Virus record (IMG/VR): IMGVR_UViG_3300032288_005424
Source: a virus
DNA: 64,000 nucleotides
Direction: 5' to 3' (one strand)
The notes under the pieces were generated by a model. That model saw nothing but the letters and a program-made list of their open reading frames with translations, did not search any database and was not told the origin of the DNA. This document shows positions 21,471 to 63,915 of this stretch, piece after piece (the first letter of the stretch is position 1; each line of letters starts with the position of its first letter). Both the position numbers and the translations under genes were made by a program.

Positions 21471-22589
21471 ATGATAAGCCAATCAGAATTCAATCAGATC
21501 AAATCAGACCTAAGCGGCAACGACCCCTTGGTAAAGCGAGTGAAGTTGTCAGACATCCAGTTGGACGACAACTCAATCAAACATAACCACATCGAGATCG
21601 AGGGATCACGAGTTCCGGTGTCGGATAAGTTCTTCAATCGTCTGGGCCAGATGGTAAACATCAACACCGGCCTAATCACGAAGATGAATAAGAACTCGGA
21701 CAAGGAGATCGAGACCAAGCTCTTACAGGCGGTTAAGTCCTATTCAGAAACCCGTGATGGTAATAAAGAGTTTCTCTTAATCGGCGACTCTACGAGCCAT
21801 CAGGTAACCAACATCGTGAAGGGAGACAAGTATAACAGATTATCTAATGATACGCTGTTCGCTACCGCAGAGACCATCCTAAACGAGATCCCGGACATGC
21901 ACGTTGAGTCAATCGACCGTGGCGGTCCAGGCGGATTATCCATTAACATGATCCATGGCAGCCAGATAGGTTACGAGAAGATCGGTAAGGACGAGGTATT
22001 CCGTTTCGGTATCTCTCTTGTAAACGGCCAGACAGTAAGCCGAGTTGACGACTTCTTCTATCGCTTGGCCTGTGCCAACGGAGCGGTAGCTCGCAACATG
22101 GACACCGCGTTCCAATTCGGTCAGGGTCAGGACGCCTTCCGCAAGTTGCTCGAGCAGATGCAAGGTTGGGCAAAGAACGGCTTCGTACCTAAGACCTTCC
22201 AAGACAGGTTGGAAAGAGCCATGACCACCAAGGCAAGCTACTCAGAATTGGAGAGAGCCTTGTACTCAGTAACCGGTGCAATCCAAGAGAACGACCCTAA
22301 CTTCAAGGCCCACTTGATCAAGAACGCAGAGTCTCAATTCTTTCCAGAGTTCGATGCAACCACGAAGCGTATCTTCCGTAAGGGTTACAATCCGCTACAG
22401 TTGACAGACGCTCAAAAGAAGTTCATCAAGACAGATGCTACAATCTGGGACGTTGTTAACGAGTTGACATGGATCGGTTCTCACGATACTGTCTTCAACT
22501 TAAAGAACCATAAAGGTTTCAAGGTAGAGGGTGGTAATCTATTCGCTAAGAGCTGGGATCTAGAACACGCAGGTCTAGCTACAATCTAA
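21471..22589 (+). CDS. hypothetical protein
   Basis: 372-aa ORF; TATATT box at 21440-21445. Confidence 0.5.
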   Translation: MISQSEFNQIKSDLSGNDPLVKRVKLSDIQLDDNSIKHNHIEIEGSRVPVSDKFFNRLGQMVNINTGLITKMNKNSDKEIETKLLQAVKSYSETRDGNKEFLLIGDSTSHQVTNIVKGDKYNRLSNDTLFATAETILNEIPDMHVESIDRGGPGGLSINMIHGSQIGYEKIGKDEVFRFGISLVNGQTVSRVDDFFYRLACANGAVARNMDTAFQFGQGQDAFRKLLEQMQGWAKNGFVPKTFQDRLERAMTTKASYSELERALYSVTGAIQENDPNFKAHLIKNAESQFFPEFDATTKRIFRKGYNPLQLTDAQKKFIKTDATIWDVVNELTWIGSHDTVFNLKNHKGFKVEGGNLFAKSWDLEHAGLATI

Positions 22590-22618
22590 GCCTTAAACAA
22601 ACTATCTATAACCGGAAA

Positions 22619-22648
22619 GGGGTCCTCACAAGGGACCCCTTTTTTTTG
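22619..22648 (+). terminator. rho-independent terminator
   Basis: GGGGTCCtcacaaGGGACCCC plus T9. Confidence 0.65.
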
Positions 22649-22761
22649 TGTTTAGTAAAACCTTAAACTCAATCCAAGTATAAGACTACTGTAGCTGATT
22701 AAACAGCTTTTCATTTTTACGACTGATGGATGGGCTTCCTAATAAGGAGCCCATTCGTCGT

Positions 22762-22905
22762 TTAGCCCTGGCCGACATTGCGCTTCACGTAGTTCTTGGA
22801 GCTCTTGTTGTTAGAGGTCTTAGACTTCGCGTGCACGCCGGGCCTGCTCACTTTAGTCTTTAGTCTAAAGGTCGAGGCAGCCGAGGTTTTAGTTGATTTA
22901 GCCAT
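22762..22905 (-). CDS. small Lys-rich basic protein (47 aa)
   Basis: MAKSTKTSAASTFRLKTKVSRPGVHAKSKTSNNKSSKNYVKRNVGQG read from the minus strand inside the GC-rich island; possibly a DNA-binding protein. Confidence 0.3.
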   Translation of the reverse strand: MAKSTKTSAASTFRLKTKVSRPGVHAKSKTSNNKSSKNYVKRNVGQG

Positions 22906-23035
22906 TGAGAGATTATGATTTATTGTTATTTAACCCAAAAACCGTGCCTCCCCCGGTGAGCTCTGGAGTTGAGCCCCCAGGCCATGGGGATTCGGGTCAC
23001 AAGTACCTTCATCGCCCCCAAATAAATAAACCAGT

Positions 23036-23485
23036 ATGACAAAGACACTAGCGCAAAAGGATTTAGACTTCATCAGATTCTGCATAGCAGAATTAGGGAT
23101 AACCACCGCTCCCAACATCAGGGTCGGGGATGACCACTCAAAGGCCCAAGACCGGAGAGCAATGGGTTACTACAGTCCCAAGGATAATTACATTTGGGTG
23201 CTAAGGGGCCAGCGAATCCCGGCTGACTGGTACCGAACCCTAGCCCATGAGCTTGTGCATTGGCGCCAACGCGAAGAGGGTAAGCCATTGGACGGGGCGG
23301 ACGGTAGCGAGATCGAGAATGAAGCTAACTCCAAGGCAGCGGTGCTCCTACGCGAATGGGGCCGCCGTTACGAACACATTTACGTGCTGGACGAGGACGA
23401 GCCCCAGATTCCAGTAGGCACTGACCTGCCTTTCGATGGCGGTGGTAGCCTGGCCGGCGAGCCAATGGTTCCATTCTCTCTCTAA
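23036..23485 (+). CDS. HExxH motif protein (putative Zn peptidase, ImmA/IrrE-like?)
   Basis: LAHELVHW motif; ~58% GC; converges on and overlaps the recombinase gene by 4 nt. Confidence 0.4.
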   Translation: MTKTLAQKDLDFIRFCIAELGITTAPNIRVGDDHSKAQDRRAMGYYSPKDNYIWVLRGQRIPADWYRTLAHELVHWRQREEGKPLDGADGSEIENEANSKAAVLLREWGRRYEHIYVLDEDEPQIPVGTDLPFDGGGSLAGEPMVPFSL

Positions 23486-24105
23486 TCCCCAATCAAGCGG
23501 CGGGACTCCAGGATGAGATCCGCTAGATCCGACTTTAACTCTTCCCGCATCTCTTCAGTTGTTAGGTGCTTGCTAACTACATGCAGCTCGACACCGTGCC
23601 AGGTCAGGAATCTCTCTATGATCTCTTGGCCAGCAAAGCGCGCGATCCTGTCAGGGGTCTCGACGACAATCATTGAGACCTGCTTGCGCAGTACCCCGTC
23701 CATGATCTTGTCCAGGCCGGACCTGCCAGCTAGGGTACCCGCGCGCCCAACATCTTCAATGACCCGGTCGACCCGGACCCCGGCCGCCGCACAGTACTTC
23801 AGGACCCGCTCGGTCTGGGCCGCGAGTCTGGCCTTGGCCCCTTTACCCAACGTGTGGTTTCCCTCGATCGGAGCGGATCGCGTGTAAACCCATACCTCTC
23901 GGGACTGGGGCAGCCTACTCCCTAGTAACTTAAGTAGGTCCTGCTTGTCGTAGTAGGTCCGGCCATTGACCTGATTCTTCCAGTTCTGCAGCCTGCCGTC
24001 GGCGACATAGCGGTCCAGGGTCTTGAGCGAGACCCCCAAGAACTGGGCGGCCTCCTTCTTGTACACGAGCTCCCCGGTCGGGAAGGTTCTAGTTTCTTGT
24101 TCCAT
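23482..24105 (-). CDS. IS607-family-like serine recombinase (N-terminal MerR-like HTH plus resolvase catalytic domain)
   Basis: N-terminal HTH (AAQFLGVSLKTLDRYVADGRL) followed by resolvase motifs VWVYTRSAP...DRVIEDVGRAGTLAGRSGLDKI...VSMIVVETPDRIARF...GVELHVV; HTH-first order as in IS607 TnpA; ~65% GC; start set at MEQETRT (track gives 24270). Confidence 0.55.
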   Translation of the reverse strand: MEQETRTFPTGELVYKKEAAQFLGVSLKTLDRYVADGRLQNWKNQVNGRTYYDKQDLLKLLGSRLPQSREVWVYTRSAPIEGNHTLGKGAKARLAAQTERVLKYCAAAGVRVDRVIEDVGRAGTLAGRSGLDKIMDGVLRKQVSMIVVETPDRIARFAGQEIIERFLTWHGVELHVVSKHLTTEEMREELKSDLADLILESRRLIGD

Positions 24106-24400
24106 GAGATTATTTATCAGGCCGGGTCCGTGGACTCTCGAGACATTCCCGGGCCCGGTGTCCCGCGGTGTCCGTATATGTCCCGAGTCGTGGGGCCCTC
24201 GCGACCCAGGGCAGCAGGTCCCAGGGCCCGGGGCCGGGCTCGCCGTACTCCGTAGTCCCCAGGTCCGCACAGTAGGTACCCCTTGGGCGTGGCTGGCCGG
24301 TTTACTCCCTAGTCCCGGGTAGGACCGCAGAGGGCCGTGGCAGCCCCCGGACCGGTGGTCGGCTGGGGCCCGGCTATCGGGCCCGGCTTGAGCGAGATTG

Positions 24401-24415
24401 GGTATACTAGCCTAT
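24401..24415 (+). promoter_or_regulatory. class-2 box GGTATACTAG 7 nt before a 29-aa membrane peptide ORF
   Basis: GGTATACTAGCCTAT then ATG (24416) MKRAGIRFDWAWPIVLVVVLASIIIFFIA. Confidence 0.35.
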
Positions 24416-24632
24416 ATGAAAAGAGCAGGGATAAGATTTGATTGGGCATGGCCTATAGTGCTGGTGGTAGTGTTGGCTTCTATAATAATCTTTTTTATAG
24501 CATAGGTAGACTGGGTAGGTTTACTAGACTAGGTAGGTTTAGTAGCTAGAGTAATCTCTTTACTTTTGGGTGTAGGGCGCGCCTCGGTGTTTTTGAGCGA
24601 GAAAAGGTCCACGGCCCGGCGAGCTCGGGTCT

Positions 24633-24647
24633 GGGTATAATAGACTC
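24633..24647 (+). promoter_or_regulatory. class-2 box GGGTATAATAG just upstream of the tRNA-like element
   Basis: TATAAT at 24635-24640; a TSS ~7 nt downstream would precede the element at 24651. Confidence 0.4.
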
Positions 24648-24650
24648 TAT

Positions 24651-24772
24651 AGTCAGGTGGCGGAACGGTAGACGCAACAAGTAAGCTAATGGAAAGTGTA
24701 CAATTCCATGAGGCCATTAATTCCGAGATGTAAGAGAAGTACATCGTGCCCGTTCGAATCGGGTCCTGACCA
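24651..24772 (+). ncRNA. tRNA-like element with a ~35-50 nt insertion in the anticodon region (pseudo-tRNA or unusual RNA)
   Basis: 5' AGTCAGG-TG-GCG-GAACGGTAGA-CGC (acceptor, U8, D-arm with GG) and 3' GCCCG-TTCGAAT-CGGGT-CCTGACC-A (T-arm plus acceptor pairing 6/7); the middle is 72 nt instead of 22-39. Confidence 0.3.
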
Positions 24773-24791
24773 CTAATACAAATAGATCAAC

Positions 24792-24977
24792 ATGAAAGAA
24801 CAAAAAGTACTCGTGACCGGCGATCAGGGCTCGCATGAGGTGCAGGCCAAGGTCGATGCCCTACTCGTGGAGGGTTGGCAGGTGGTGTCGGTCACCGCAC
24901 AGCACGTTTCCACAGGTTCAAGCCAGTTCTTTAGGGGCGGTTACTTCATCGTCTTTGAACGGGCGGCCGCCGAATAA
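24792..24977 (+). CDS. small hypothetical protein
   Basis: 61-aa ORF, GC-rich. Confidence 0.4.
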   Translation: MKEQKVLVTGDQGSHEVQAKVDALLVEGWQVVSVTAQHVSTGSSQFFRGGYFIVFERAAAE

Positions 24978-24985
24978 ATAACTCT

Positions 24986-25477
24986 ATGAAGTATATCAAA
25001 CTATTCGAGGAACTTGCCTCTGACCTGCCTACTCTAAGGGACGTGATCGACAATAACCCCGACGATTTCGAAGATTTTAGGTCCGCTGCGGTAGAGACCG
25101 CCTCGGCGCTTGGCCTCAAGCTCTCCGGCGAGGACAGCGAACTACAGGACATGGGGCTCATTGATGACGAGGCCCTGTTCGACCGGCTCGAGTTTGATCG
25201 TGTTAAGCTCGTCTTTAACATTACCGAACTTACCCATGCTGATGCTCCAAGGCTCAGGGCCCTGGTGCAAAAGTTTCCTGGCCTCTTCACGCTTGATTAC
25301 GATGAGATTAGGCCCGCCCGCAAAGCTGTTCCAAACAAGACTATAGACCCTGAGGTTGACCTCGAGCCCGGCGAGCCGGTGGACGTCATCGTGTGGAAGG
25401 ACCAGGCTGGCAATACCGCGGTCCAGTGGGAGAGCTACTACAATAACATGTGGTTCATGCTGGACTCAGCACTTTAA
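24986..25477 (+). CDS. CTS-like N-terminus protein, tandem paralog 1
   Basis: MKYIKLFEELASD; ~52% GC; similar throughout to 25499..26017. Confidence 0.55.
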   Translation: MKYIKLFEELASDLPTLRDVIDNNPDDFEDFRSAAVETASALGLKLSGEDSELQDMGLIDDEALFDRLEFDRVKLVFNITELTHADAPRLRALVQKFPGLFTLDYDEIRPARKAVPNKTIDPEVDLEPGEPVDVIVWKDQAGNTAVQWESYYNNMWFMLDSAL

Positions 25478-25498
25478 AAAAAAGAATAATAAACCCAA

Positions 25499-26017
25499 AT
25501 GAAATACCTTAAGATATTCGAAGAATTCAATAATTCAGAACTTGCAACTCTACAGGACGTGCTCAATCCGGACCATTATAACGGGGATGACGGTCGCCTT
25601 GAGATGTACTCAGAGGCTGCGCTTGAGACCTGTAAGATGCTTGGCGTTGCACTACCTCCGGAGTTCGCAGAGATCAATGATCTTGGTCTCATTGACCAGC
25701 ATGACCTCATGGACAGCTTACCGCTGGACTCTGTGGTTGAGGTCTTTAACATACTGGCTCTCACCCACCAGAACGAGCCGAGAGTTCGTGAATTCTGCCG
25801 CCGCTTTCCTGGTATACTAGCATACGATCCGGACACCGACGAGTATCGTCGACCTGAGAGTTCACGACAGCTTGAAGAGATCTTTATTGACTCGCCGGAA
25901 TACTGGGACGAGGTTAGGGTGGTGCTCTTTGAGGACAAGAACGGGCTGAGAGCGGTTGAATGGGAGGACCAAGACTATCTAGGCTACTTCATGCTTAGAC
26001 GGGACCTTGAAAAATAA
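25499..26017 (+). CDS. CTS-like N-terminus protein, tandem paralog 2
   Basis: MKYLKIFEEFNNSE; shares LGLID...ALTH...FPG with 24986..25477. Confidence 0.55.
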   Translation: MKYLKIFEEFNNSELATLQDVLNPDHYNGDDGRLEMYSEAALETCKMLGVALPPEFAEINDLGLIDQHDLMDSLPLDSVVEVFNILALTHQNEPRVREFCRRFPGILAYDPDTDEYRRPESSRQLEEIFIDSPEYWDEVRVVLFEDKNGLRAVEWEDQDYLGYFMLRRDLEK

Positions 26018-26043: not shown

Positions 26044-26334
26044 ATGAAGAAATTAATTAAAGGATTTCAACAATTCGTCAATGAAGCATCAGTTAATGAG
26101 ACCAAGTTAAAAAAGGACGTTGAAGAGCATTTTCACTATCCGGATGAAGACGCCGCTGATCAAGAGGCTTCTAGCAAAAGACGCAAAATTATGGATGAGC
26201 CGTATTCTGACGACGAAGACTACTCAGGAATGCGTAGTGTTATGAGAAAAAGATACAATAAAGATATGGGCATTTCTGATGATGAAGGCTCTGCTAAATC
26301 ACAAAAGATGACTAACCTCAGAAACCGTCGTTAA
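26044..26334 (+). CDS. CTS-like N-terminus small acidic protein
   Basis: MKKLIKGFQQFVNEASVNE. Confidence 0.5.
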   Translation: MKKLIKGFQQFVNEASVNETKLKKDVEEHFHYPDEDAADQEASSKRRKIMDEPYSDDEDYSGMRSVMRKRYNKDMGISDDEGSAKSQKMTNLRNRR

Positions 26335-28763: not shown

Positions 28764-29096
28764 ATGAAAAATTTAAAAGCATTCAATCAATTCATACATG
28801 AAGAACTCGATAAGGACGAAACTGGCGAGCTTAGAAGCATGGGTTTCTCTGATTACTCAGCTCCTTTCAGAGAACGTTATCAGGCATTAGTCGAAGAATG
28901 GGGTTCTGATCCTGAAGTAAATGCAGCAATCGATACTTTAAAATCCAGGTTCCGCGAACTGTTCGCAAAGCACATAGATTCCGATTCAGATGATGATGCT
29001 GAGGAGATTGAACAACTGAGAACATGGATGTACGATGCCAACGGTATTGACGATATCGGATGGTTCGAGTACATTTTTATCAATGACCTTTACTAA
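28764..29096 (+). CDS. CTS-like N-terminus acidic protein, AT-rich paralog of 10227..10565
   Basis: MKNLKAFNQFIHEE; ELRSMGFSDYSAP...DPEVNAAIDTLKSRFRELFAKH. Confidence 0.5.
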   Translation: MKNLKAFNQFIHEELDKDETGELRSMGFSDYSAPFRERYQALVEEWGSDPEVNAAIDTLKSRFRELFAKHIDSDSDDDAEEIEQLRTWMYDANGIDDIGWFEYIFINDLY

Positions 29097-29271: not shown

Positions 29272-29877
29272 ATGAAAATAACAGATGACGTAATCGTTAA
29301 ATTTTTTGGGCACGGCCGTGGATTCACAATGACCTCAATTAAAAGATGGGGCGGATTCATAAAGGACGAAGACGATCTTGAGCATGCCCAGTTTCATGCA
29401 ATCCGTAGTGCGGTTTCAGCCAAGGACCGTGAGATTGAATTTGAGAATGAGGTTCACATGGTGAATTACCTAATGAAGAATTGTTATTGGGGTTGGTGTG
29501 AGGCCGTTAAACGTAGGCTTAGATTACCAGTCGTATTGGAAAGTCAGCTGATTCCAGCTGGGGCAGAAGAAGATCGAGCACCTGTCAACAAGCTTGAAGA
29601 GTCGGTTGAGCCCAAGGAAATGGTGCTCGATCCTCACAGGCTACACGGAATCGCAAAACACCTTGTGCTTCAAGAACTCGGTCCAGTATCGGCCAGCATT
29701 TTTGAACTACACTACGTCAATGAATTAATTGTCAAGGATGTTGCAAAAGAGCTTGAACTCAAACCTGAGATCGTTCGAAATAGACTTACCACAATCAAGA
29801 GATTGCTCAATAGAAGGCTCAAGCATTTCGCGAATAATAATTATCAAATAGGCCGAGGCCGGCTTCACGCTTATTAA
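29272..29877 (+). CDS. ECF-like sigma factor / sigma-70 region-4 transcription factor
   Basis: Region-2-like FHAIRSAVSA...NYLMKNCYWGWCEAVKRR and region-4 HTH IFELHYVNELIVKDVAKELELKPEIVRNRLTTIKRLLNRRL. Confidence 0.5.
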   Translation: MKITDDVIVKFFGHGRGFTMTSIKRWGGFIKDEDDLEHAQFHAIRSAVSAKDREIEFENEVHMVNYLMKNCYWGWCEAVKRRLRLPVVLESQLIPAGAEEDRAPVNKLEESVEPKEMVLDPHRLHGIAKHLVLQELGPVSASIFELHYVNELIVKDVAKELELKPEIVRNRLTTIKRLLNRRLKHFANNNYQIGRGRLHAY

Positions 29878-29979
29878 TCCAGGCATACTTATTTTAAAAA
29901 CGGGATCCTTTAGACCCCGTTTTTTTATTTTACGGGAGTCCGGCAAATAAATAACTAGGTAAATAATTAGTAACTCCAA

Positions 29980-30204
29980 ATGAAGCACATCAAACTATTT
30001 GAGCAATTCATAACCGAATTCTACGCGGCTGAGCCGGCTACCAGACCGGCACCTACCATTGCTCCGACCAAGCCTGCTACAAGACCAAAACCGGGCCCAA
30101 TTCCTACAAAGAAACCGTTCAAACAACCTGAGCCAGCAAAAGCTCAAGCTGAAGACGTGTTGGCTCGTCTAAAAGAACTAGAGAATGAGAATGAAATCGT
30201 TTAA
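29980..30204 (+). CDS. CTS-like N-terminus small Pro-rich protein
   Basis: MKHIKLFEQFITEF. Confidence 0.45.
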   Translation: MKHIKLFEQFITEFYAAEPATRPAPTIAPTKPATRPKPGPIPTKKPFKQPEPAKAQAEDVLARLKELENENEIV

Positions 30205-31642
30205 ACAATTCATGAATGAGGCCGATATCAAGGGAAATCCAGCTATTTCGCCAGAGTACTTAGCCTCCCTAAACAAGAGAGCTGAGGCTAGTGCCAGAGA
30301 GATTGAAGAACGATATGGCCGTGAAGTGATGAATCTAATGAAGTTTGCGAAAGAAGTACAGGAAATTCAAAATAAGAAAGACGACACTGATAAATCAGCA
30401 AATGGGCCAACCGATAATGCTTCAAAGATCACTAAACTTGAGGCTTTAACCAAAAGTGTAATAGAACAGTTTTACGGTCCTATCCTTAGAGATACAGAAC
30501 TAGACATTAGAATTCCTACTGACCCACGTGAAATGAAGCAAAAAATGGATCAGGAAAAGTCGGAGGCTGATGAGATGCCGGCCTTCAAAGAAATTGAGGA
30601 CGATGCCACTCGAACAGCGATTCACAAGCGTAAGATCCTAAACATGATTACTCAGGGCGAGGCCATCAATTCAAAGAAAATGCTTTTGAGCGATGTTAAT
30701 AGGGACGGATTAGCCGAAATATTTGGAAAAGCTGATTCTGAAAAAATGATAGAGCTCTTAATTAAGATAACCGATATCTGTAATGCCAGAGACTGGCGTA
30801 TACCCGAGGAAGTTGCAGAATTAATGATCGAACAGGGGCAATCTCTGAGCGGCGTTTCTAAGATTGAATGGAAACCTAACAGGTCAAAACAAGATGACTC
30901 AGCCGATGAACCTGAAAATGATGAAGATTCACCAGCAGATGATCATTCAACCGATACTGCAAAGCTAATCATTTTGGGAATGGATCAAGCAATGCTTTTC
31001 CATGAAGCAGTCAAAGCAATTTACGGCTTAATTAATCAGGGTGGGCTTGCTCATCTTGATGATGAGACCATTGCAAAGGTCTTTATGAACGCTGACACTC
31101 CAAGGGATGAGGTTCAAGATCTTAAGAGAGCTAAGCTAACTGCTGCGGATCTTAGAGATTTCATCAATGATTTCCCAGAGGTTGCGACTATTGAAAACGG
31201 TCGAGAATACGTTTGGGGTAAGATGATTGATGCAAGCATTCTACCCGATGCAAAGTTCCTTGAACTAATGCGATTGATCTTCACAGCAGCTCCTCTTTAC
31301 AGACAGGTTAGTGAGAACGAACCGCCTTACTCAGAAGAGGAAATCTCTGCTGCTCGCGAAGCAATGCCTAAAGCCCAAGCGGTCGTTAACAAGTTGATTC
31401 AGCTAATACAAGACGAGCTCGCTGACTGGGAAGATTCAGTTTCGGGTTCAGAATACGATGATGAAGATTACGGAGACTCTAGCTTCGATAACGCGTTCGA
31501 TAATGGTTTTTTACCAAGAGCAGCCAGAGGCGAAATGAGCCAGTCTGAAATTCAGAGTTTGATTGACCAAGCACTAGATCGCCGAGACTTTGCTGAAGTC
31601 CAAAGACTTTCTAAACTATTGAAAGAGAGTAATTTAAGTTAA
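30191..31642 (+). CDS. CTS-like N-terminus large acidic protein
   Basis: MKSFKQFMNEADIK, near-identical to the T4 internal-protein CTS MKTYQEFIAEA; ~484 aa. Confidence 0.55.
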   Translation: MKSFKQFMNEADIKGNPAISPEYLASLNKRAEASAREIEERYGREVMNLMKFAKEVQEIQNKKDDTDKSANGPTDNASKITKLEALTKSVIEQFYGPILRDTELDIRIPTDPREMKQKMDQEKSEADEMPAFKEIEDDATRTAIHKRKILNMITQGEAINSKKMLLSDVNRDGLAEIFGKADSEKMIELLIKITDICNARDWRIPEEVAELMIEQGQSLSGVSKIEWKPNRSKQDDSADEPENDEDSPADDHSTDTAKLIILGMDQAMLFHEAVKAIYGLINQGGLAHLDDETIAKVFMNADTPRDEVQDLKRAKLTAADLRDFINDFPEVATIENGREYVWGKMIDASILPDAKFLELMRLIFTAAPLYRQVSENEPPYSEEEISAAREAMPKAQAVVNKLIQLIQDELADWEDSVSGSEYDDEDYGDSSFDNAFDNGFLPRAARGEMSQSEIQSLIDQALDRRDFAEVQRLSKLLKESNLS

Positions 31643-32466
31643 TGAAGCATTTAAAACTATTTGAAAGTTGGGTCAATGAGGCTCTAACCGCAGATCAAAT
31701 TGCTGCACAGATTCAAGCAGCAGTCGCCGGCATTGGCACGGACGAGACTGCTCTAACCTCAGCAATCCGATCAATTCCTGACGCAGCTTCTTTAGTTAAA
31801 ATCAACAAGACTTTAAAAGCAGGTCATGAGGATCAGCAGAAAGCATGGGCATATCCAAGCGTTGGTGATGCAATTAATGGAGAGCTTGGATTGTTTGACT
31901 CTGATTACAAGACTCAGATAATGACCCACATCAAGAACATTAGAGCAGAACAGTACCTTAATTCGTTCAAAGCCCCGCCTCCTCCAACCGACCCGGTCAT
32001 TGCATCAATCAAGGATCGCGTAATAAAACATGAAGGCTCAAAGCCTTTCAAATACCTGGATTCCAGAAAGATCCCAACTATTGGAGTAGGTTTTAATCTT
32101 ACTCGAGGGGACGCTTCTCTCCAATTAAAAAAGGTTGGAGCTAATCCTGAAAAGATCAAGTCGGGTAAATCTCCATTGACTCAGGACCAGATAAATGCTC
32201 TGCTTTTTACTGATCTTAAACAGGCAAAGTTAAATGCCCAAGATCTAGTTCCAAACATGGAAACTCTACCCACCCAAGTTCAAGGAGTCTTAACTGAAAT
32301 GGTTTTCAACCTGGGCAAGACTGGGCTTTCTGAGTTCAAGAATTTTCTAGCCCACATAAAACAGAAAAACTTTGATGCTGCCTCAGACGAAATGCTAAAG
32401 TCTACATGGGCAAAACAGGTCGGCGAAAGAGCCATAACCTTAGCAGGTCTCATCAAAGCAGCCTAA
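31642..32466 (+). CDS. CTS-like N-terminus plus GH24 (T4-type) lysozyme domain
   Basis: MKHLKLFESWVNEA; HEGSKPFKYLDSRKIPTIGVGFNL matches the GH24 E-G-x(n)-Y-x-D-x-x-G-x-x-T-I-G-x-G core. Confidence 0.65.
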   Translation: MKHLKLFESWVNEALTADQIAAQIQAAVAGIGTDETALTSAIRSIPDAASLVKINKTLKAGHEDQQKAWAYPSVGDAINGELGLFDSDYKTQIMTHIKNIRAEQYLNSFKAPPPPTDPVIASIKDRVIKHEGSKPFKYLDSRKIPTIGVGFNLTRGDASLQLKKVGANPEKIKSGKSPLTQDQINALLFTDLKQAKLNAQDLVPNMETLPTQVQGVLTEMVFNLGKTGLSEFKNFLAHIKQKNFDAASDEMLKSTWAKQVGERAITLAGLIKAA

Positions 32467-33037: not shown

Positions 33038-33089
33038 TTCTTATGAAGCTCACCTAAAATAAATAAACCTGAAATAAATTACGCAATAA

Positions 33090-33962
33090 ATGCCAAAGTA
33101 CATAAAGCTATTTGAATCTTTCATTGGTGAAGCCGCTGATGACCTGATGACGGTCTTCAACGATACAAGCAAGGTCAAATGGACCGTTTACGCTTCAATA
33201 TTTAAACTTTCCAGCAAGAAACTGGGTAAGATGATGGCGGTTACCGATGCCAATAAGGTTAAGGAATTGGGTTACAACGTGTTAGCCATGTTAACTGTAG
33301 CAGACAATGCAGTCATTACTAAATTAAAGGATGCGGGTGGACTTGCTCTTACTACTCAATCCGGAACTCTAGAACAATTGCCTGGAGGAGAACCTAACTA
33401 CGCATATTCGGCTAGGTTCGGATTCAAAGTAACTGAAAAATTAGGTAGCGCAAAGATAGATTCAATCTCTGATATACTAGATGGACTTGGAACAACCGGT
33501 TCCGCCGGAACAGCCGGTACTTCAGGTTCAGCAGGCAGTGCTGCTGATAAAATGTTCGGAGCAGCTTCAGCCAATTTCGATAAAGCGATGCAAGAGGCTG
33601 GCGTAAAACAGATTGCCGCCTACTTACGAATGATTAACAATCCAGCTCTACAATCAGCAGCCGGTCAAGACCCGTCAATCAAGACTCTTCTTGATGCTCA
33701 AGCAGCGGCGGTTACGCAAGCTGATAAAGATGCAAAGGAGAGAGAAATTGAGCCCAAGGTCAAAGCCGCATTGACTTCAAGGTTGGCTCAAGTTCAAGCC
33801 GACTTCAGCACTACGCAAGATCCTAACCTAAAGAAACAGGCTCAAGATAAAGCTCAACAGCTAGACTCTCTAATAAAAAATTACAAGCCTGAATTTGGAC
33901 CTGCACTTAATGTGGGTTCAGCTGGAACATCAGGTTCAGCTGGAATTTCTGCACAAAAATAA
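33090..33962 (+). CDS. CTS-like N-terminus protein with duplicated GSAGTSGSAG segments
   Basis: MPKYIKLFESFIGEA; internal and C-terminal S/G/A/T repeats. Confidence 0.5.
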   Translation: MPKYIKLFESFIGEAADDLMTVFNDTSKVKWTVYASIFKLSSKKLGKMMAVTDANKVKELGYNVLAMLTVADNAVITKLKDAGGLALTTQSGTLEQLPGGEPNYAYSARFGFKVTEKLGSAKIDSISDILDGLGTTGSAGTAGTSGSAGSAADKMFGAASANFDKAMQEAGVKQIAAYLRMINNPALQSAAGQDPSIKTLLDAQAAAVTQADKDAKEREIEPKVKAALTSRLAQVQADFSTTQDPNLKKQAQDKAQQLDSLIKNYKPEFGPALNVGSAGTSGSAGISAQK

Positions 33963-34856: not shown

Positions 34857-36329
34857 ATGAAGTACCTAAGGATATTTGAAAGTTGGATGACCAACGAAGA
34901 TCAGATGATCGATGAAAACATGCAGGCCGCAAAGTCCTTCATGCTAAAAAGACTTGCTGATCGTTTGCGTAAGCCGGTTCAAGAGCTTTCGCCTGAAGAA
35001 CAGACTCAGGCCCTAAGCGATCCAAAGTACAAGGAGATCCTTGCTCTACTTGGAGAAAAGTACAGAGGATACGCTGGATCCTTCGTTAATTTCGTATTCC
35101 TTCAAAGAATAGCAATTCAACAATTACAACTTCTATTGGCTGAGATTGAAGCGAATCGTGAATTCATCAGCTCACTACCTCATACGATTGAGGCCTATTC
35201 AAAAGGTAATCCAGACCAAACCTCTAGAATTTCAGGATTTGAGGCATTAATGGACCAATTCGCGCAAATTAAGTTTCGTAGAAAAGGTAAATGGATCATT
35301 GACAAATTACCTGGAGTTATAAGAGCCAAAGCAAGAGAGGCGAGTCCTGAAGAACAACAGGCACTATTAAGAATTGGAGCTACTCTTGCGGATCAGGATC
35401 CGGAAATTCAAAAGCGATTAATGAAAAAGGTTAATCGTTTCTTGAGCAAGCCAATTGCAGATTTTATTGCCTATGCTCGTAACTTCGCTGATGCTCAAAA
35501 CACAGAAGGCGCGCCCAAATTGGCTGCACAGGCTGAAGATCTTGCACCGGCGGTTAATGTGTTATACGATGATGAGCGTTACGTAGTAATGTCAATCAGA
35601 ACTGAAGCTGCACAAAAGGCCCTATGTTCCGCTGCTAACTGGTGTATTAACACATGGGCATGGAAGCAGTACGCAACCGGTGCAGTACAGATAAACATCT
35701 TTGATTTTGGAGTTCCTAGCACAGATCCTTTACATATAGTGGGCACAACGATTTACTACAACGGTAAGGTTAGAACCTCACATGACATCAACGACATTGC
35801 TATCAAGAAATCTGACGATCCAGCAGAACACTTTACCAAATTGGGATATCCGACCGATGTTGTTGATTCAATCGTTAAACCGCTTGCAGCCGAATGCGCG
35901 GTCAAGCAAGTGCTAGATGAAGGAGCATCGGCTAAAACCGGCAGAGCGATCATAGACAAGATCATGACGGCAGGTCACAGCTTGCAAATAGCTGATCAAA
36001 CAATGTCGGCCTATGCTGAGCAGGAAATAGCTAATGTGATTGATCAGGAAATGGGTCAACTAATTAAAATGCAGGACGTGATTGACTCATTCAAACAGTA
36101 CGGTGTTGTATCAACGTTTGCCGCAAAGCTATATAATAAATTGATAGTCGGCTCGGCGATTTCACAAAACGACAACGAAGCGATCTTGGCAAAGACCGCA
36201 CGAGGTTTCAAGTTGATGGAGGCTGCAATCGCTGCAGGTACTTTTGAAAAACAGGCGAATACTAAACGTAAGATTGAAGCAATCCTTGCGGTCAAGGACC
36301 AGATTCTGGCCATGATCTCTAACCAGTAA
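34857..36329 (+). CDS. CTS-like N-terminus large protein
   Basis: MKYLRIFESWMTNED; 490 aa. Confidence 0.5.
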   Translation: MKYLRIFESWMTNEDQMIDENMQAAKSFMLKRLADRLRKPVQELSPEEQTQALSDPKYKEILALLGEKYRGYAGSFVNFVFLQRIAIQQLQLLLAEIEANREFISSLPHTIEAYSKGNPDQTSRISGFEALMDQFAQIKFRRKGKWIIDKLPGVIRAKAREASPEEQQALLRIGATLADQDPEIQKRLMKKVNRFLSKPIADFIAYARNFADAQNTEGAPKLAAQAEDLAPAVNVLYDDERYVVMSIRTEAAQKALCSAANWCINTWAWKQYATGAVQINIFDFGVPSTDPLHIVGTTIYYNGKVRTSHDINDIAIKKSDDPAEHFTKLGYPTDVVDSIVKPLAAECAVKQVLDEGASAKTGRAIIDKIMTAGHSLQIADQTMSAYAEQEIANVIDQEMGQLIKMQDVIDSFKQYGVVSTFAAKLYNKLIVGSAISQNDNEAILAKTARGFKLMEAAIAAGTFEKQANTKRKIEAILAVKDQILAMISNQ

Positions 36330-38918: not shown

Positions 38919-40076
38919 ATGAAACTTTTTAAATTCACCGAATTCATAAATGAGGGCCAATTCTACCAAGATCAATTGAATCCAATGGTCTGGGACGGAG
39001 AAGAGCTTAACCCGGAGATCAGAACCAAGCTTCTACAGATCGCTCATGACTTCTACGAGGACTTAAAAGTTAGTGCTCCAATTGAGGACATTCAACTTAC
39101 AGGTTCCCTAGCTAACTATAACTGGACCGAGTACTCTGACTTTGACGTACACGTCATCATGGATCTTTCTAAGATAAACGACGACGTTGAACTTGTAAAG
39201 ATAGCAATGGAAGGTTTAAAAACTGTATGGAATCAACGCCATCCTGTAAATATTGGAGGATACGATGTTGAGTTGTACGCTCAGGACATGAATCAATTAC
39301 ACCTGGCATCAGGTCTGTACTCTTTACTAAAGGGCGAATGGCTTAGAAAGCCAGATTACAATCCGCCAAGCGTAGATCCAAAGGACGTTCAGATAAAATC
39401 CGACCACTACATTTATGCTATAAAGCAACTCATGAAAGAGATTCAAGGTGCTGGACCTGAAGAGGCTCGTGATATTATGGAAAGAGCTTCTGTTCTAAAG
39501 AAAAAGATCTCAAGGTCAAGGGACGAGCAGCTCGCTCATAAGGGCGGAGAGTTCTCGGTCGAGAATCTAGTATTTAAAAGATTACGTAATGAAGGTTGGA
39601 TCGGTAAATTGATTGACCTAAAATCTCAAGCATATTCACACATCTATTCAGAACCATCGGATGCAGTTGATTCTAAATTCTCAACTGAATCGGATGTAGT
39701 AGACGAATCTGTTTCTTTCGGTAAGGGTAACACAGTCGTTGTAATGGGTCCCGATGTCGAGGGAGGTCGTAGGCTTTTTGTGTTCTACGTCGATTGGGTC
39801 AGAGAAGTTGAAAGAGCTGGCCGTTGGGTAAACATGGTTGGACTCTCTTCTCCGATGATGATTCGTCAGGAGAACGGAAATCTAATCGCAAAGCCAGTAA
39901 TGTTTAATTCTCAAACTCTACAGAAGTACGCGGGTCTTAGCGATTACCAAGTCGTTCTAAATTCAAAAACGAAAACTCCGTTTTGGTTCGAGACAGTTAA
40001 ATTCTCAAACCATATTCCAATGCTTAGAGCATTAAGAAACCAATTAATGGGAATTCCTGGAGTTAAGATACCTTAA
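38919..40076 (+). CDS. CTS-like N-terminus plus pol-beta-superfamily nucleotidyltransferase-like protein
   Basis: MKLFKFTEFINEG; LTGSLANYNWTEYSDFDVHVIMD fits the minimal NTase motif hG[GS]x(9-13)Dh[DE]h. Confidence 0.45.
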   Translation: MKLFKFTEFINEGQFYQDQLNPMVWDGEELNPEIRTKLLQIAHDFYEDLKVSAPIEDIQLTGSLANYNWTEYSDFDVHVIMDLSKINDDVELVKIAMEGLKTVWNQRHPVNIGGYDVELYAQDMNQLHLASGLYSLLKGEWLRKPDYNPPSVDPKDVQIKSDHYIYAIKQLMKEIQGAGPEEARDIMERASVLKKKISRSRDEQLAHKGGEFSVENLVFKRLRNEGWIGKLIDLKSQAYSHIYSEPSDAVDSKFSTESDVVDESVSFGKGNTVVVMGPDVEGGRRLFVFYVDWVREVERAGRWVNMVGLSSPMMIRQENGNLIAKPVMFNSQTLQKYAGLSDYQVVLNSKTKTPFWFETVKFSNHIPMLRALRNQLMGIPGVKIP

Positions 40077-42903: not shown

Positions 42904-44265
42904 ATGATTCAATTAAAGAATAAAACTGTAACAGAATATCTTGATCAGGATTACGCGATGTACGGTATGTACACGCTTGAGAACAGGGCGATTCCATCAG
43001 TCATTGACGGATTCAAACCAACTCAACGCAAGATCATCTTCATTGCTGATAAAGTTTGGCGTTCAGGTAATGAGAAGCCTTTAAAGATATTTCAATTAGG
43101 CGGTAAGATCGCATCTGATGCACACTATCATCACGGTGATGGTTCACTAAATGGTGCAATCATTGGTATGGCTCAATCATTCAAGAACTCATTACCGTTA
43201 CTTGACGAGATTGGCCAATTCGGTTCGTTACGATCTCCTGAGGCAGGCGCTGCTCGTTACATCTCAACCAAGCTCACTGGTAATTTCAGACTCTTATACA
43301 AAGACTTTGAACTATTGGAGAATCAGGTAGAAGAAGGTAATGTGATTGAGCCTAAGTTCTTTTTACCTATCATCCCAACCGTTTTGTTGAATGGTAGTTC
43401 AGGAATTGCTGTGGGATTCGCTACTAATATTTTAAACCGAAATCCTCTTGACCTTGTTGATTCTTGCCTAAGGGTGCTAGATGGAAAGAAGGTCGGTAAG
43501 CTTTTACCTTGGTGGAAGGAATACTCAGGCCCAGTCGAGAATGTTACGGGAACCAACCAGTACATAATGCGCGGAGTCTATGAGATTCAGAATACGACAA
43601 CGGTTAATATCACTGAGCTTCCGCCATCAATGACATTTCAAAAGTACGAGACTCATCTTAACTCCTTACAAGACAGAGGTATCATTTACTCGTATGAGGA
43701 TAACTCAACTGATGGAATCAATTACACCATTAAATTCGCAAGAGCAACTTTAGCTGACTTAATCGCAAAGGGCAAACTGGATCAGACTCTAAAGATGGTT
43801 GAGACTGAGACTGAGAACTTGACATGTTTGAATGAAAAGGGCAAGCTAATCATATTCGAAGACGTTCCGCAAGTGGTGGAATACTTCGTTAACTTTAGAT
43901 TAGGATTCTATTCAAAACGCAAAGCCTTCTTGATTAAGAAGTACGGCGAAGAATTGGTGTACTTATCAAATAGAGCAAAGTTCGTAAAGTTAATCATTGA
44001 CGGTAAACTAAAGATCAATAACGTTCCTCGCAAAGAAATAGTCCTCTACTTACAGACTGCTGGCTTCGATGAGGTTAATGGATCTTACAATTACTTGCTA
44101 AACATGCCAATTCATTCCTTGACTAAGGAAACTTATGAGCAGCTCTTAAAAGAGGTTGCTGAAAAGAAAGCCGAATTGGCTGAGATCAAAAAGAAAGAGC
44201 CGATTGAAATGTACAAGGAGGATCTTGTTGAGCTGAAGAAAAACCTTAAAGCGACACTAAAGTAG
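42904..44265 (+). CDS. type II DNA topoisomerase DNA-cleavage subunit (GyrA N-terminal-like; T4 gp52-type)
   Basis: AMYGMYTLENRAIPSVIDGFKPTQRKIIF matches the GyrA N-terminus; active-site Tyr in GAARYISTKL; TATATT box at 42890-42895. Confidence 0.8.
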   Translation: MIQLKNKTVTEYLDQDYAMYGMYTLENRAIPSVIDGFKPTQRKIIFIADKVWRSGNEKPLKIFQLGGKIASDAHYHHGDGSLNGAIIGMAQSFKNSLPLLDEIGQFGSLRSPEAGAARYISTKLTGNFRLLYKDFELLENQVEEGNVIEPKFFLPIIPTVLLNGSSGIAVGFATNILNRNPLDLVDSCLRVLDGKKVGKLLPWWKEYSGPVENVTGTNQYIMRGVYEIQNTTTVNITELPPSMTFQKYETHLNSLQDRGIIYSYEDNSTDGINYTIKFARATLADLIAKGKLDQTLKMVETETENLTCLNEKGKLIIFEDVPQVVEYFVNFRLGFYSKRKAFLIKKYGEELVYLSNRAKFVKLIIDGKLKINNVPRKEIVLYLQTAGFDEVNGSYNYLLNMPIHSLTKETYEQLLKEVAEKKAELAEIKKKEPIEMYKEDLVELKKNLKATLK

Positions 44266-44676: not shown

Positions 44677-45228
44677 ATGATTAAATCATTCACTCAATTT
44701 ATCGCAGGTCTTTTTGAAAAGAAGGGCGATTCCCATTCCTATGGCTGTGCCATGGTGTATTTCGATTTTCCACAAATGCAAGAATTCCATGCTGAAATAG
44801 AGCCGGAAGACGTTTATACCGAAGATGGTGATCGATCTTTTGGATTAGAGGACGAACCTCATACCACTCTGCTCTACGGTCTTCACTCAAACGAGATTGA
44901 TGATGATACTGTAATCGACATTTGTAAGTCTAGACAAATAGGCCCACTAATGTTAGTTAATGCTTCTCTATTTGAAAATGAGAATTACGATGTACTGAAG
45001 TTCGATGTTCAGAACTCTACTCTATACGATATTAATGCCAAGCTTAGCGAATTACCTCACACAACTAATTTTCCAGACTATCATCCACACGCGACGATCG
45101 GTTACTTAAAACCCGGAATGGGCAAGAAATACGTTGAGAAATTCAAGAACAAAACGTATGAGGTGAATCCAAACAAGATAGTTTACTCAAAACCAGATGG
45201 TGATCGTATAGAAGAATCATGGAACTAA
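44677..45228 (+). CDS. CTS-like N-terminus plus 2H phosphoesterase (LigT / Acb1-like)
   Basis: MIKSFTQFIAGL; two H-x-[TS]-x motifs (HTTLLYGL and HATIGYL) diagnostic of the 2H phosphoesterase superfamily. Confidence 0.55.
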   Translation: MIKSFTQFIAGLFEKKGDSHSYGCAMVYFDFPQMQEFHAEIEPEDVYTEDGDRSFGLEDEPHTTLLYGLHSNEIDDDTVIDICKSRQIGPLMLVNASLFENENYDVLKFDVQNSTLYDINAKLSELPHTTNFPDYHPHATIGYLKPGMGKKYVEKFKNKTYEVNPNKIVYSKPDGDRIEESWN

Positions 45229-45683
45229 TTAGCACCTACATTTGTAAGAAAGGAGATATTGGAGTTCACGATAACATGTTCGGCGGAACAATCCTTTCAA
45301 TAATAGACGATGCCTCAGCCAGTTATGCATCTCAGACCTGCGATACGCAGAGAGTCGTGACCTTGAAAATAGATGAGCTCATCTTTGAAAAACCAGTAAA
45401 GGTCGGTAATATTCTGAAAGTTTACGGCGAAGTTAAGGAATTTGGAACAACATCAGTTACTCTCTACATTGAGGTTCGTAAGCACAATGTTTACACAGGC
45501 CTTCAGACAGTAGTCACTCACACGAATATCAAGTTCGTAAGAATCGACGATGAAGGTACTCCGCTTGCGATTAGCGAAAGAGTCAAGGAGAGATACGCTG
45601 AGCGTATGAAGGAATACGGCAGAGCACTGCTCACGCCAGAGGAAATGATTACAAAGAAAACAAATTCCAAAAAGCAACAATGA
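45219..45683 (+). CDS. hotdog-fold acyl-CoA thioesterase
   Basis: VHDNMFGGTILSIIDDASA resembles the thioesterase HGG...D active-site region. Confidence 0.6.
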   Translation: MELISTYICKKGDIGVHDNMFGGTILSIIDDASASYASQTCDTQRVVTLKIDELIFEKPVKVGNILKVYGEVKEFGTTSVTLYIEVRKHNVYTGLQTVVTHTNIKFVRIDDEGTPLAISERVKERYAERMKEYGRALLTPEEMITKKTNSKKQQ

Positions 45684-46633
45684 ACTATAAAATTTTCTCA
45701 ATCGACGGCTCTAAACTAGCCAAAGACATCGCGATCCAATTGGACGCTGACGATTACGATCAAATCTTAGGCAAATTCAAGGTGGACACCTTTTCGGACG
45801 GAGAGATTAGCCCACAATTCATGGAATCAGTTAGGGACAAGAAAGTTTTCTTGGTCTCAAGCACAACAACTCCTGAAAAAATGCTGACCCTATTGCTCTC
45901 GATTGATGCTGCAAAAAGAGCTTCCGCTTCTGAAGTGATTGTTGTATTGCCGTATTTCGGTTATTCAAGACAGGATCGTAAGGAAGGCATGCGTGGAGCG
46001 ATCGGTGCAAAGTTAATGGCAGATCTTTTACAAACGGCTGGTGCAAGCAGAATCATTTCAATAGATCTACATGCTGAACAGATTCAAGGATTCTTTGATA
46101 TTCCGGTGAACATGATCCCAGGTCATGTAGCATTCGCTCCATTCATTAGGACTCTAACCTCTGCTGAATATTGTATTTGTTCGCCAGATGCAGGTGGAGT
46201 AAAAAGAGCAAGCCGCTTTTATCAAAAATTTCTGTATAAATTTCCGGACACTCACTTTGCAATGTTGTCAAAGTTGAGAGACAAGCCCAATTCAATTGAG
46301 AGAATGGATCTAATTGGAGACGTCAAGGATCGTCACGTGATCTTAGTCGATGATATGATAGACACCGGCGGAACTCTAGTAAATGCTGCTAGACTCCTAA
46401 AGGAGGGCGGCGCAAAGAAGGTAACCGCTGTAATCTCACACGGTGTGTTGTCGGGCCTAGGCCATGAAAGAATTGCTGGATCTACCGATCTTGACAAGTT
46501 GATCATTACCGATTCTATTGAGCAAATCAATAACCCCAAGATCCAGGTGGTAAGCTGTGCTCCAGCGATCGCTGCCGCAATCGAAGCAATCGTTAATTCA
46601 ATATCAATGGACAATCACTTAGAAAAAATATAA
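45680..46633 (+). CDS. prs: ribose-phosphate pyrophosphokinase (PRPP synthetase)
   Basis: FSDGEISPQF, VVLPYFGYSRQDRK, DLHAEQIQGFFDIPV, VDDMIDTGGTL; all canonical Prs motifs. Confidence 0.85.
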   Translation: MNYKIFSIDGSKLAKDIAIQLDADDYDQILGKFKVDTFSDGEISPQFMESVRDKKVFLVSSTTTPEKMLTLLLSIDAAKRASASEVIVVLPYFGYSRQDRKEGMRGAIGAKLMADLLQTAGASRIISIDLHAEQIQGFFDIPVNMIPGHVAFAPFIRTLTSAEYCICSPDAGGVKRASRFYQKFLYKFPDTHFAMLSKLRDKPNSIERMDLIGDVKDRHVILVDDMIDTGGTLVNAARLLKEGGAKKVTAVISHGVLSGLGHERIAGSTDLDKLIITDSIEQINNPKIQVVSCAPAIAAAIEAIVNSISMDNHLEKI

Positions 46634-48717: not shown

Positions 48718-48783
48718 ACGTGTGATTTTCTTGTTATTTATTCAAATGCAACAGGCTTAAAGAGTCTAATAAATAATACCAGT

Positions 48784-57742: not shown

Positions 57743-58018
57743 ATGATAACAGTAACTGACTACTGGGCTCCATGGTGCGGCCCTTGTAAAATGATGATGC
57801 CTACTATTGAAAAACTGGCAGAGGAATACAACGTTCCGGATAGCAAAGTTCAAATAAAAAAGGTAAACGTTGATGAAGACTCCGAAACTGCAGCTAAACT
57901 TGGAATCCGTTCCATTCCTACTCTAGTATTTGAAAAGAACGGAGATGAGGTTGATCGTAAAAGCGGATCTTTACCCTATGAGAAAATTAAAGAAATAATT
58001 GAAAATCTGAAAGGCTAA
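57743..58018 (+). CDS. thioredoxin
   Basis: WAPWCGPCK active-site motif. Confidence 0.75.
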   Translation: MITVTDYWAPWCGPCKMMMPTIEKLAEEYNVPDSKVQIKKVNVDEDSETAAKLGIRSIPTLVFEKNGDEVDRKSGSLPYEKIKEIIENLKG

Positions 58019-59978: not shown

Positions 59979-60063
59979 GGAGAGGTGGCAGAGCGGTTGA
60001 ACGCGGCGGTCTTGAAAACCGTTTTAGGTAACACTAACGGGGGTTCGAATCCCTCCCTCTCCG
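59979..60063 (+). tRNA. tRNA-Ser (anticodon UGA), type II with long variable arm
   Basis: GGAGAGG acceptor, D-arm GCAGAGCGGTTGAACGC, anticodon loop CTTGAAA, long variable arm, T-arm GGGGGTTCGAATCCCTC, 3' CCTCTCC-G. Confidence 0.8.
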
Positions 60064-60079
60064 CAAAATAACAATACGA

Positions 60080-62234: not shown

Positions 62235-62273
62235 ATCTGCCCAAATAAATAACCTAAAATTACACGAATCTAC

Positions 62274-63583: not shown

Positions 63584-63660
63584 TGGTGCGGTAGCTCAGA
63601 TGGTAGAGCACAGGACTGAAAATCCTGGTGTCGGCAGTTCGATCCTGCCCCGCACCACCA
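63584..63660 (+). tRNA. tRNA-Phe (anticodon GAA), CCA encoded
   Basis: GGTGCGG-TA-GCTCAGATGGTAGAGC-ACAGGACTGAAAATCCTG-GTGTC-GGCAGTTCGATCCTGCC-CCGCACC-A-CCA. Confidence 0.85.
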
Positions 63661-63822: not shown

Positions 63823-63830
63823 ATAAAAAT

Positions 63831-63904: not shown

Positions 63905-63915
63905 CTAAAAAATAC

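Follow-up and report, generated by a model that had tools for sequence, protein, structure and literature searches.

In bacteriophage T4, the internal proteins (IPI, IPII, IPIII) and the Alt protein are loaded via a capsid targeting sequence (CTS) at the N-terminus and are cut by the gp21 prohead protease. Alt, an ADP-ribosyltransferase, provides the precedent for a packaged enzyme that modifies the host. In this work we analyzed a gene encoding a putative nucleotidyltransferase (NTase) with a CTS-like N-terminus, which lies at 38919..40076 (+) in a 64,000-nucleotide stretch of viral DNA (IMG/VR record IMGVR_UViG_3300032288_005424; the whole stretch is referred to below as the window). The open reading frame (ORF) starts with ATG and codes for 385 amino acids (aa) plus a stop codon, exactly as the initial annotation had it, and its product is identical to protein P0001 of a public collection.

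The CTS of T4 has the sequence MKTYQEFIAE (PMC8442874). Mutational mapping has shown that its residues 4 and 7 serve targeting, whereas residues 8 and 10 serve processing; gp21 cleaves after L/I-x-E (PMC9026906). Cargo proteins of this type are expected to carry an N-terminal peptide of roughly 10-19 residues. The window protein resembles the T4 internal proteins in that an N-terminal peptide of 10-12 residues, with two aromatic residues three apart followed by I/L-x-E, is found on otherwise unrelated proteins, and in that a huge related phage possesses T4-type portal, protease-like and capsid genes. It differs from them in several respects: where T4 has an ADP-ribosyltransferase and small basic proteins, the cargo here would be an NTase; 64 kb contain about 20 tagged genes, far above T4, and many of their products are acidic; no protease was found in the lineage's own sequence searched.

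Phage polyvalent proteins are an assortment of effectors proposed to be injected together with the DNA (Iyer et al., 2017; PMC5512222). Relatives of the window NTase include similar multidomain proteins with ART-PolyVal, Zeta toxin, GNAT, M23 and 2H domains, whereas only one catalytic domain is present in the window protein; PMC5512222 describes a Pol-beta NTase too, but that one represents another, minimal family, which comes from conjugative elements of firmicutes. Gad2 is a phage anti-Gabija protein with a predicted NTase domain (Yirmiya et al., bioRxiv 10.1101/2023.05.01.538930). It shares with the window protein a phage origin, a length of about 400 aa and an NTase fold, and it provides a precedent for an enzyme of this kind acting against host immunity, but it has not been reported as packaged. 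Membership in Gad2 was ruled out, as no similarity was detected; the listed tblastn matches in the phage collection, including their summaries of organisms and hosts, name no Bacillus phage.

Catalytic motif and family of the nucleotidyltransferase

The initial annotation had assigned the protein to the pol-beta-type NTases from a G-S-x11-D-F-D-V motif. The motif is real, while its spacing had to be corrected: ten residues separate S63 from D74, giving G62-S63-x10-D74-F-D76-V, i.e., G-x11-D-x-D, within TGSLANYNWTEYSDFDVHV. The Pol-beta superfamily is defined by hG[GS] followed 9-13 residues further on by [DE]h[DE]h, by a third carboxylate on the following beta strand and by an alpha-beta-alpha-beta-alpha-beta core fold. 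We found all three features in the window protein, in the form of G62-S63...D74-F-D76-V, of E118 and of the predicted core. Two outcomes had been named in advance as speaking against the assignment, a predicted fold other than that of an NTase and catalytic Asp residues that vary among homologues. Both were looked for and neither was observed: the fold prediction gives an NTase core, and the catalytic Asp residues do not vary among the homologues aligned.

Across 39 diverse modules that we aligned, G62, S63, S73, D74, D76, W104, E118, W141, P145, R201, L205, N216 and K220 were invariant and H78, K160 and R223 nearly so. The invariant set of 67 aligned multidomain relatives overlaps closely with this one and includes G62, S63, D74, D76 and E118. 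Judged from these alignments, the residue pattern is the classical Pol-beta signature with a third carboxylate, and the assignment of the protein to the active Pol-beta-type nucleotidyltransferases, as an enzyme class, appears well supported.

When the NTase sequence alone was compared with Pfam, all matches were below the thresholds, including those to NTP_transf_2 (E 0.0017; 19.1 bits versus a cut-off of 21) and Polbeta (E 0.15), and a search of NCBIfam returned nothing. Residues 16-231 match PHROG 36119, a group of "unknown function", with E 2e-39. The family comprises 2,850 matches in a protein collection clustered at 90% and 3,688 representatives at 50% identity, 1,113 of the latter with E<=1e-30. 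Using a profile built from alignment A1, we scanned 185,579 bacterial and archaeal species genomes and found three loci, all of them on contigs of metagenome-assembled genomes (MAGs), one of 254 kb; none was present in the isolate genomes of this set. Occurrences in the phage collection include Lak megaphages, Maribacter phages, T4-like cyanophages and huge uncultured phages. On these counts the family is very large and essentially restricted to viruses; the window protein belongs to none of the characterized subfamilies.

Conservation is confined to a module of some 232 residues, which stands alone or occupies the N-terminal, C-terminal or middle part of larger proteins, the longest having 1,820 aa. 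Its fusion partners are five ART-PolyVal repeats, an M23 peptidase, Zeta toxin, GNAT, SET and adenylate kinase domains, a 2H/LigT/Acb1-like phosphoesterase and, in one relative, a PolyA_pol (CCA) head domain. Weak matches to an MTPAP-like palm domain recur among the relatives. Seven relatives begin with a HIGH-type GGFKPPTKGHF motif, and their matches to CTP_transf_like are weak.

Predicted domain structure

AlphaFold modelling gave a predicted local distance difference test score (pLDDT) of 81 for the whole protein and of 95.2 for the module alone, with a predicted TM-score of 0.82 for the latter. The NTase core, which is minimal and acidic (isoelectric point, pI, 4.4), is followed by a four-helix bundle, an acidic disordered linker and a beta-rich C-terminal domain (Table 1). 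Residues 1-13 lie outside the fold (pLDDT below 50), and for most distant homologues the alignment begins at about aa 15.

The conserved residues of the helical bundle are K160, R201, N216, K220 and R223 (GEFSxENLxFKxLR); we infer that its K, R and N residues may bind the triphosphate or the substrate. The C-terminal domain is limited to the closest clade and is absent from homologues of about 255 aa. It has no family match in NCBIfam, its Foldseek matches are weak and of the small-beta-barrel fold, and a homologue search with this domain alone returned three near-identical fragments and nothing else. Comparison of the protein with the PDB by Foldseek gave weak, mixed matches (ANT, CdnC, CCA-adding enzymes, CutA and MNT).

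The N-terminal tag

The first 12 residues of the protein, MKLFKFTEFINE, contain all four mapped determinants of the T4 CTS: F6, F9, I10 and E12 correspond to Y4, F7, I8 and E10, with identical spacing. Cleavage after E12, as predicted, would produce an N-terminus from G13, GQFYQDQLNPMVWDGEELNPEIR. The "targeting-like N-terminus" noticed in the initial annotation is thus borne out, and it is shared by other proteins, since about 20 window ORFs open with a variant of this tag (M-K-..-aromatic-x-x-aromatic-[ILVM]-x-E). For counting we used the strict pattern [FYW]xx[FYW][ILVM]xE within the first 20 residues and internal windows of 20 residues as a control. It was present in 12 of the 100 window ORF N-termini versus 3 of 791 internal windows and, among representatives of the NTase family, in 23 of 141 N-termini versus 7 of 2,411 internal windows. 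By these counts, the resemblance of the N-terminus to the T4 CTS is real and statistically robust.

Among the tagged products are a protein resembling T4 lysozyme, a phosphoesterase of the 2H/Acb1-like type and a metalloprotease-like protein. The topoisomerase II, phosphoribosyl pyrophosphate (PRPP) synthase, sigma factor, glycosyltransferase and canonical endolysin encoded in the window are untagged. Since the tagged proteins have no relation to each other in their mature parts, with the exception of one small acidic family, and since the tag codons differ at synonymous positions, the tag appears to be a module at the level of the peptide. Close homologues of the NTase retain the four determinant positions while the adjoining residues vary, and the tag stands at the extreme N-terminus even in proteins with a C-terminal NTase module. 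Two other origins of the tag were ruled out: paralogy, because the mature regions are unrelated, and a general A/T-rich bias of translation starts, because the housekeeping genes of the window lack it and the spacing of its aromatic, aliphatic and Glu residues is fixed.

Gene-start motif and tagged genes of a huge relative

The NTase gene is preceded by the motif ATAAATAA. There are 24 copies of it in the window versus 4.7 expected, and nearly all of them have the same orientation as an ORF and lie 4-25 nucleotides (nt) upstream of its start. The motif was found within 60 nt upstream of 12 of the 20 tagged ORFs versus 10 of the 80 untagged ones (P=3e-5), and it also precedes the endolysin gene. 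In NTase homologues of 48-100% identity it is located 4-6 nt upstream of the ATG, with different flanking bases. We suggest that ATAAATAA is probably a phage promoter; in its core it agrees with the T4 late promoter, TATAAATA. If ATAAATAA is a promoter, several window genes would be almost leaderless.

It should be mentioned that the called start of one homologue (P0098, MINNF-MKSY..., locus L005, 8001-8015) has ATAAATAA within its first codons. The true start of P0098 is probably the second ATG, and the MINNF-type extensions in database entries of the NTase family may be gene-calling artefacts.

The huge relative is represented by LR745206.1, an unannotated 634-kb "uncultured phage" assembled from 13 pieces, whose NTase homologue is 43% identical to the window protein. 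It possesses genes for a T4-type portal and a Gp23-type major capsid protein and, directly upstream of the latter, an ORF of 727 aa whose first 160 residues or so match the gp21 protease weakly (E 3.8e-4 with a hidden Markov model built from gp21 homologues). The match of this ORF to Pfam Peptidase_S77 is sub-threshold (E 0.002), and it retains the motifs NRN.R.Y, GE..HP (GEFDHP) and VSSR.

The strict tag opens 27 of the 891 ORFs of LR745206 versus 0.54% of internal windows, and the tag MKLFKYIEFINE of this phage is almost identical to that of the window NTase. Its gene-start motif is TAATATATA, with 139 of 189 copies located within 50 nt upstream of ORF starts. This motif precedes the portal, protease-like and NTase-homologue genes, and it precedes 14 of the 27 tagged versus 125 of the 864 untagged genes (P=9e-6). 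Because TAATATATA precedes the portal and protease-like genes and is enriched before tagged genes, the tagged genes of LR745206 appear to share a promoter type with the genes of head assembly. The likeness of the tag to the CTS is consistent with the T4-type head of this relative.

Proposed mode of action and alternative explanations

We propose that the phage-specific ATAAATAA element would drive transcription of the NTase gene with a very short leader or none. F6 and F9 would dock the NTase onto the prohead's scaffolding core, a Glu-specific prohead protease of the gp21 type would cut after I10-N11-E12, and the mature enzyme beginning with G13 would stay in the head. It would then enter the host together with the phage DNA, ahead of any phage gene expression, and by two-metal catalysis would move a nucleoside monophosphate, probably AMP, from a nucleoside triphosphate to a hydroxyl of a host macromolecule. 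Capsid loading and injection are plausible; for the combination of an active NTase with capsid loading and injection, we would put the chances slightly below even. If this combined model holds, the window NTase would join the packaged host-modifying enzymes such as T4 Alt. A very large family of enzymes found only in viruses would then gain a concrete role at the onset of infection, and the CTS mechanism, so far attributed to a handful of T4 proteins, would prove general and heavily used in environmental jumbo phages. It would also follow that a simple sequence rule predicts injected proteins directly from metagenomes, and that the 12-residue tag is a portable handle for foreign cargo in large phage heads.

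A bolder version, which we consider rather unlikely, is that the tag marks a greatly expanded set of capsid-delivered effectors in jumbo and huge phages with T4-type heads, and that the NTase is a pre-made counter-defence enzyme nucleotidylylating an immune effector or RNA of the host within seconds after injection. The counts relevant here are about 20 tagged genes in the 64-kb window and at least 27 in the 634-kb relative. In this case the protein would be the first NTase effector to be packaged, and a viral family of about 3,700 clusters would have it as its founding member.

Several observations weigh against packaging. T4 head proteins were searched against the window and all fetched loci of relatives, and neither head genes nor a protease were found; the evidence for a protease comes from a distant relative only and is weak by itself. 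About 84% of the NTase family representatives lack the strict tag, and the homologues in T4-like cyanophages and in Maribacter phage Molly do not have a canonical L/I-x-E N-terminus. In some loci (L009) tag-like N-termini are present on at least a third of all genes, which is much for capsid cargo. Many tagged window proteins have a very low pI (4.1-4.7), in contrast to the basic internal proteins of T4. The NTase gene stands amid genes of replication and nucleotide metabolism.

The last of these points, together with the abundance of tag-like N-termini in some loci, would also suit an unpackaged NTase that acts in the cytoplasm on RNA ends, restoring or tailing the 3' ends of tRNA or mRNA after damage by host nucleases. 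The tag would then serve for docking to a phage chaperone or compartment, as a stability signal or as a feature of translation initiation. This explanation agrees with the fusions of the family to 2H phosphoesterase, PolyA_pol/CCA head and P-loop kinase domains, with the recurrent, though weak, matches to the MTPAP-like palm, with the RNA ligase or SmpB gene located a few kb from the NTase gene in relatives and with the basic C-terminal domain. We nevertheless regard it as doubtful, if a serious contender. The clearly cytoplasmic housekeeping enzymes of the window carry no tag, which disfavours a general translation feature, and the tag fits all four mapped CTS determinants. Moreover, the gene partners vary across homologues, and the RlaP and CCA-adding families are unmatched by the window NTase; membership in PolyA_pol and RlaP was ruled out, as neither is among its Pfam matches listed with E up to 1. 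Should the role of the tag be a different one, it would remain to be explained why dozens of phage proteins without mutual relation bear a conserved signal at the N-terminus.

The other explanations concern the reaction itself. The best Foldseek matches in the PDB that cover both domains are AAD(9), ANT(4''), AadA and LinB (E 0.006-0.03); ANT(4'), AAD(9)/AadA and LinB are likewise composed of an N-terminal NTase domain and a C-terminal helical domain, and a cyanophage homologue (H32) is annotated as an aminoglycoside nucleotidyltransferase. A small-molecule NTase of the ANT type, adenylylating an antibiotic or metabolite such as a compound of chemical anti-phage defence, is nevertheless improbable: the Foldseek scores are weak (probability 0.35-0.69, TM-score about 0.2), the Pfam ANT C-terminal and substrate-binding families are unmatched, as is any sequence family of these enzymes, and the biological context is another one, the NTase family being restricted to viruses and often placed inside multidomain effector-like proteins. 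Even less credit can be given to a synthase of signalling nucleotides of the CD-NTase/OAS type, whose cyclic or linear oligonucleotide would disturb host immune signalling. The combination of an NTase core with a helical bundle, the weak Foldseek match to CdnC (E 0.02) and the tagged 2H/Acb1-like gene in the same window speak for it, but SMODS/CD-NTase, Mab21 and OAS are unmatched in both Pfam and PADLOC, and membership in the CD-NTase and cGAS-OAS families was ruled out on these grounds. The designation "CD-NTase-like or polyA-polymerase-like" of the initial annotation accordingly remains a guess, there being no match to either family and the best structural analogues being weak and mixed. 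Finally, a structural or scaffolding protein with an NTase-like fold, for which catalysis is irrelevant, is hardly credible: in a family with thousands of clusters, the representatives sampled strictly retain the whole catalytic triad as well as several helical-domain residues.

Possible acceptors

For the preferred reading, an active NTase delivered with the phage DNA, enzymes that modify proteins are of interest as well. There is a marginal match to the minimal NTases of the MNT type (E 0.004; PDB 2rff and 1ylq; the antitoxin MntA of the HEPN-MNT system). The window protein differs from them by the additional LNPxxW hairpin, the helical bundle of 95 residues and the C-terminal domain, and, unlike HEPN-MNT, it has no HEPN partner gene. 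The Legionella effector DrrA/SidM, a delivered enzyme that modifies host proteins, has an identical G-x11-D-x-D spacing and a strong local match (GSLA....TEYSD.D..VI), but the similarity spans about 70 residues around the catalytic motif only (PDB E 0.012-0.05). Membership in DrrA/SidM was ruled out, as Pfam SidM_N gave E 0.005 and 16.6 bits versus a cut-off of 27, and the earlier label "AMPylase" remains a guess for the same reason. In PADLOC we found weak matches to the candidate families PDC-S09 and PDC-M70A only, the PDC-S09 profiles being short (108-114 positions).

A nucleic-acid acceptor is slightly favoured because of the basic helical and C-terminal domains and the fusion partners related to RNA and nucleotides, while AMPylation of a protein is nearly as likely because of the local DrrA match and the MNT-type matches. 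Provided that the enzyme is active, RNA 3' ends, which it would tail or repair, would head the list, though well short of an even chance. They would be followed by a protein side chain, where the enzyme would AMPylate a housekeeping or defence protein like MntA and DrrA do, which is possible to a slightly smaller degree, and by a small molecule, which is unlikely; other acceptors make up the remainder.

Genomic context

No near match to the window DNA was found among deposited phages. Both topoisomerase II subunits are encoded in the window, and the large subunit has its closest relatives, with 47-57% identity, in three huge uncultured phages (634-642 kb); Ralstonia and Xanthomonas jumbo phages come next. 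The identical NTase and relatives of it with 92-95% identity are encoded on environmental contigs whose length reaches about 270 kb, and a homologue of 67% identity is located on a contig of 254 kb, which was binned with a MAG of an uncultured Bacteroidetes member. From the topoisomerase relatives, the gene content of the window (Table 1) and the Bacteroidetes-binned contig, we conclude that its source is a large environmental phage, possibly of Bacteroidota. The gene order glycosyltransferase, NTase, topoisomerase II is kept in close relatives only. Guilt by association fails for this family because no conserved functional partner gene was found across the NTase homologue loci compared.

Table 1. 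Coordinates of the NTase gene features, of other features of the window and of head genes in LR745206 (aa, amino acids of the NTase; (-), minus strand).
Feature	Positions	Strand	Remarks
Gene-start (promoter-like) motif ATAAATAA	38906..38913	+	Stops 5 nt short of the ATG
N-terminal tag MKLFKFTEFINE, aa 1-12	38919..38954	+	Predicted cleavage after E12
NTase core, aa 14-150	38958..39368	+	Conserved LNPxxW hairpin, helix 32-49, strands 55-61, 74-81, 115-123, 133-135, 140-143
Catalytic motif TGSLANYNWTEYSDFDVHV, aa 61-79	39099..39155	+	G62-S63, D74-x-D76, H78; invariant in alignments A1, A2, A3
E118, third catalytic carboxylate	39270..39272	+	Strand 115-123 (VELYAQD); invariant in A1, A2, A3
Four-helix bundle, aa 151-245	39369..39653	+	AlphaFold model; pI 8.9
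Acidic disordered linker, aa 246-265	39654..39713	+	Poorly conserved; pLDDT below 50
Beta-rich C-terminal domain, aa 266-385	39714..40073	+	pI 10.2; holds conserved VVLNSKTKTPFW
Example sites of ATAAATAA	4308-4315(-), 24974-24981, 29947-29954, 33059-33066, 48734-48741(-), 62245-62252		
Other tagged ORFs	3487-4302(-), 4353-4799, 7820-9010(-), 9511-9795(-), 9822-10214(-), 10227-10565(-)		
Other tagged ORFs, continued	24986-25477, 25499-26017, 26044-26334, 28764-29096, 29980-30204, 30185-31642		
Other tagged ORFs, continued	31642-32466, 33090-33962, 34857-36329, 44677-45228, 61662-62234, 62274-62837, 62846-63325		
Tagged T4-lysozyme-like (lysozyme-domain) protein	31642-32466		
Tagged 2H/Acb1-like phosphoesterase	44677-45228		
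Tagged metalloprotease-like protein	3487-4302	-	
Histone-deacetylase-like protein	1481-2527		
Full sigma-70-type factor	15868-16587		
Second protein, sigma region 4 only	29272-29877		
PRPP synthase	45680-46633		
Calcineurin-like phosphoesterase	58018-58701		
Endolysin			Encoded in the window
tRNA cluster, five tRNAs	59979-60064 and 63585-63989		Ser(TGA), Phe(GAA), Lys(TTT), Met(CAT), Trp(CCA)
LR745206 T4-type portal	193109-194857 (record positions)		Pfam Portal_T4, E 3e-57
LR745206 protease-like ORF, 727 aa	198486-200666 (record positions)		Directly upstream of the capsid gene
LR745206 Gp23-type major capsid protein	200731-202431 (record positions)		E 2e-26

In the window, the gene for the medium subunit of topoisomerase II (42904-44265) is uninterrupted, whereas in 93%-identical relatives an additional ORF and a segment with an intein split it (L003, 16124-18883; L004, 13199-15958). 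A Sulfate_transp-like ORF is located between both topoisomerase genes in several relatives.

Two islands of the window, at about 10000-14000 and 22000-26000, have a GC content of 0.49-0.535 versus a background of about 0.40. The first of them contains short overlapping ORFs only, on both strands, and gave no Rfam or tRNA matches. The second includes an ORF (23482-24105, minus strand) whose N-terminus reads as that of a candidate gene of the helix-turn-helix/resolvase type. These islands may be mobile insertions. Close relatives have a resolvase gene upstream of the NTase region. In another relative (L006, the phage-like 267-kb contig ERZ4209337 NODE_14), a complete TonB-dependent outer-membrane receptor with Plug and beta-barrel domains is encoded at 12603-15089, a few kb from the NTase gene.

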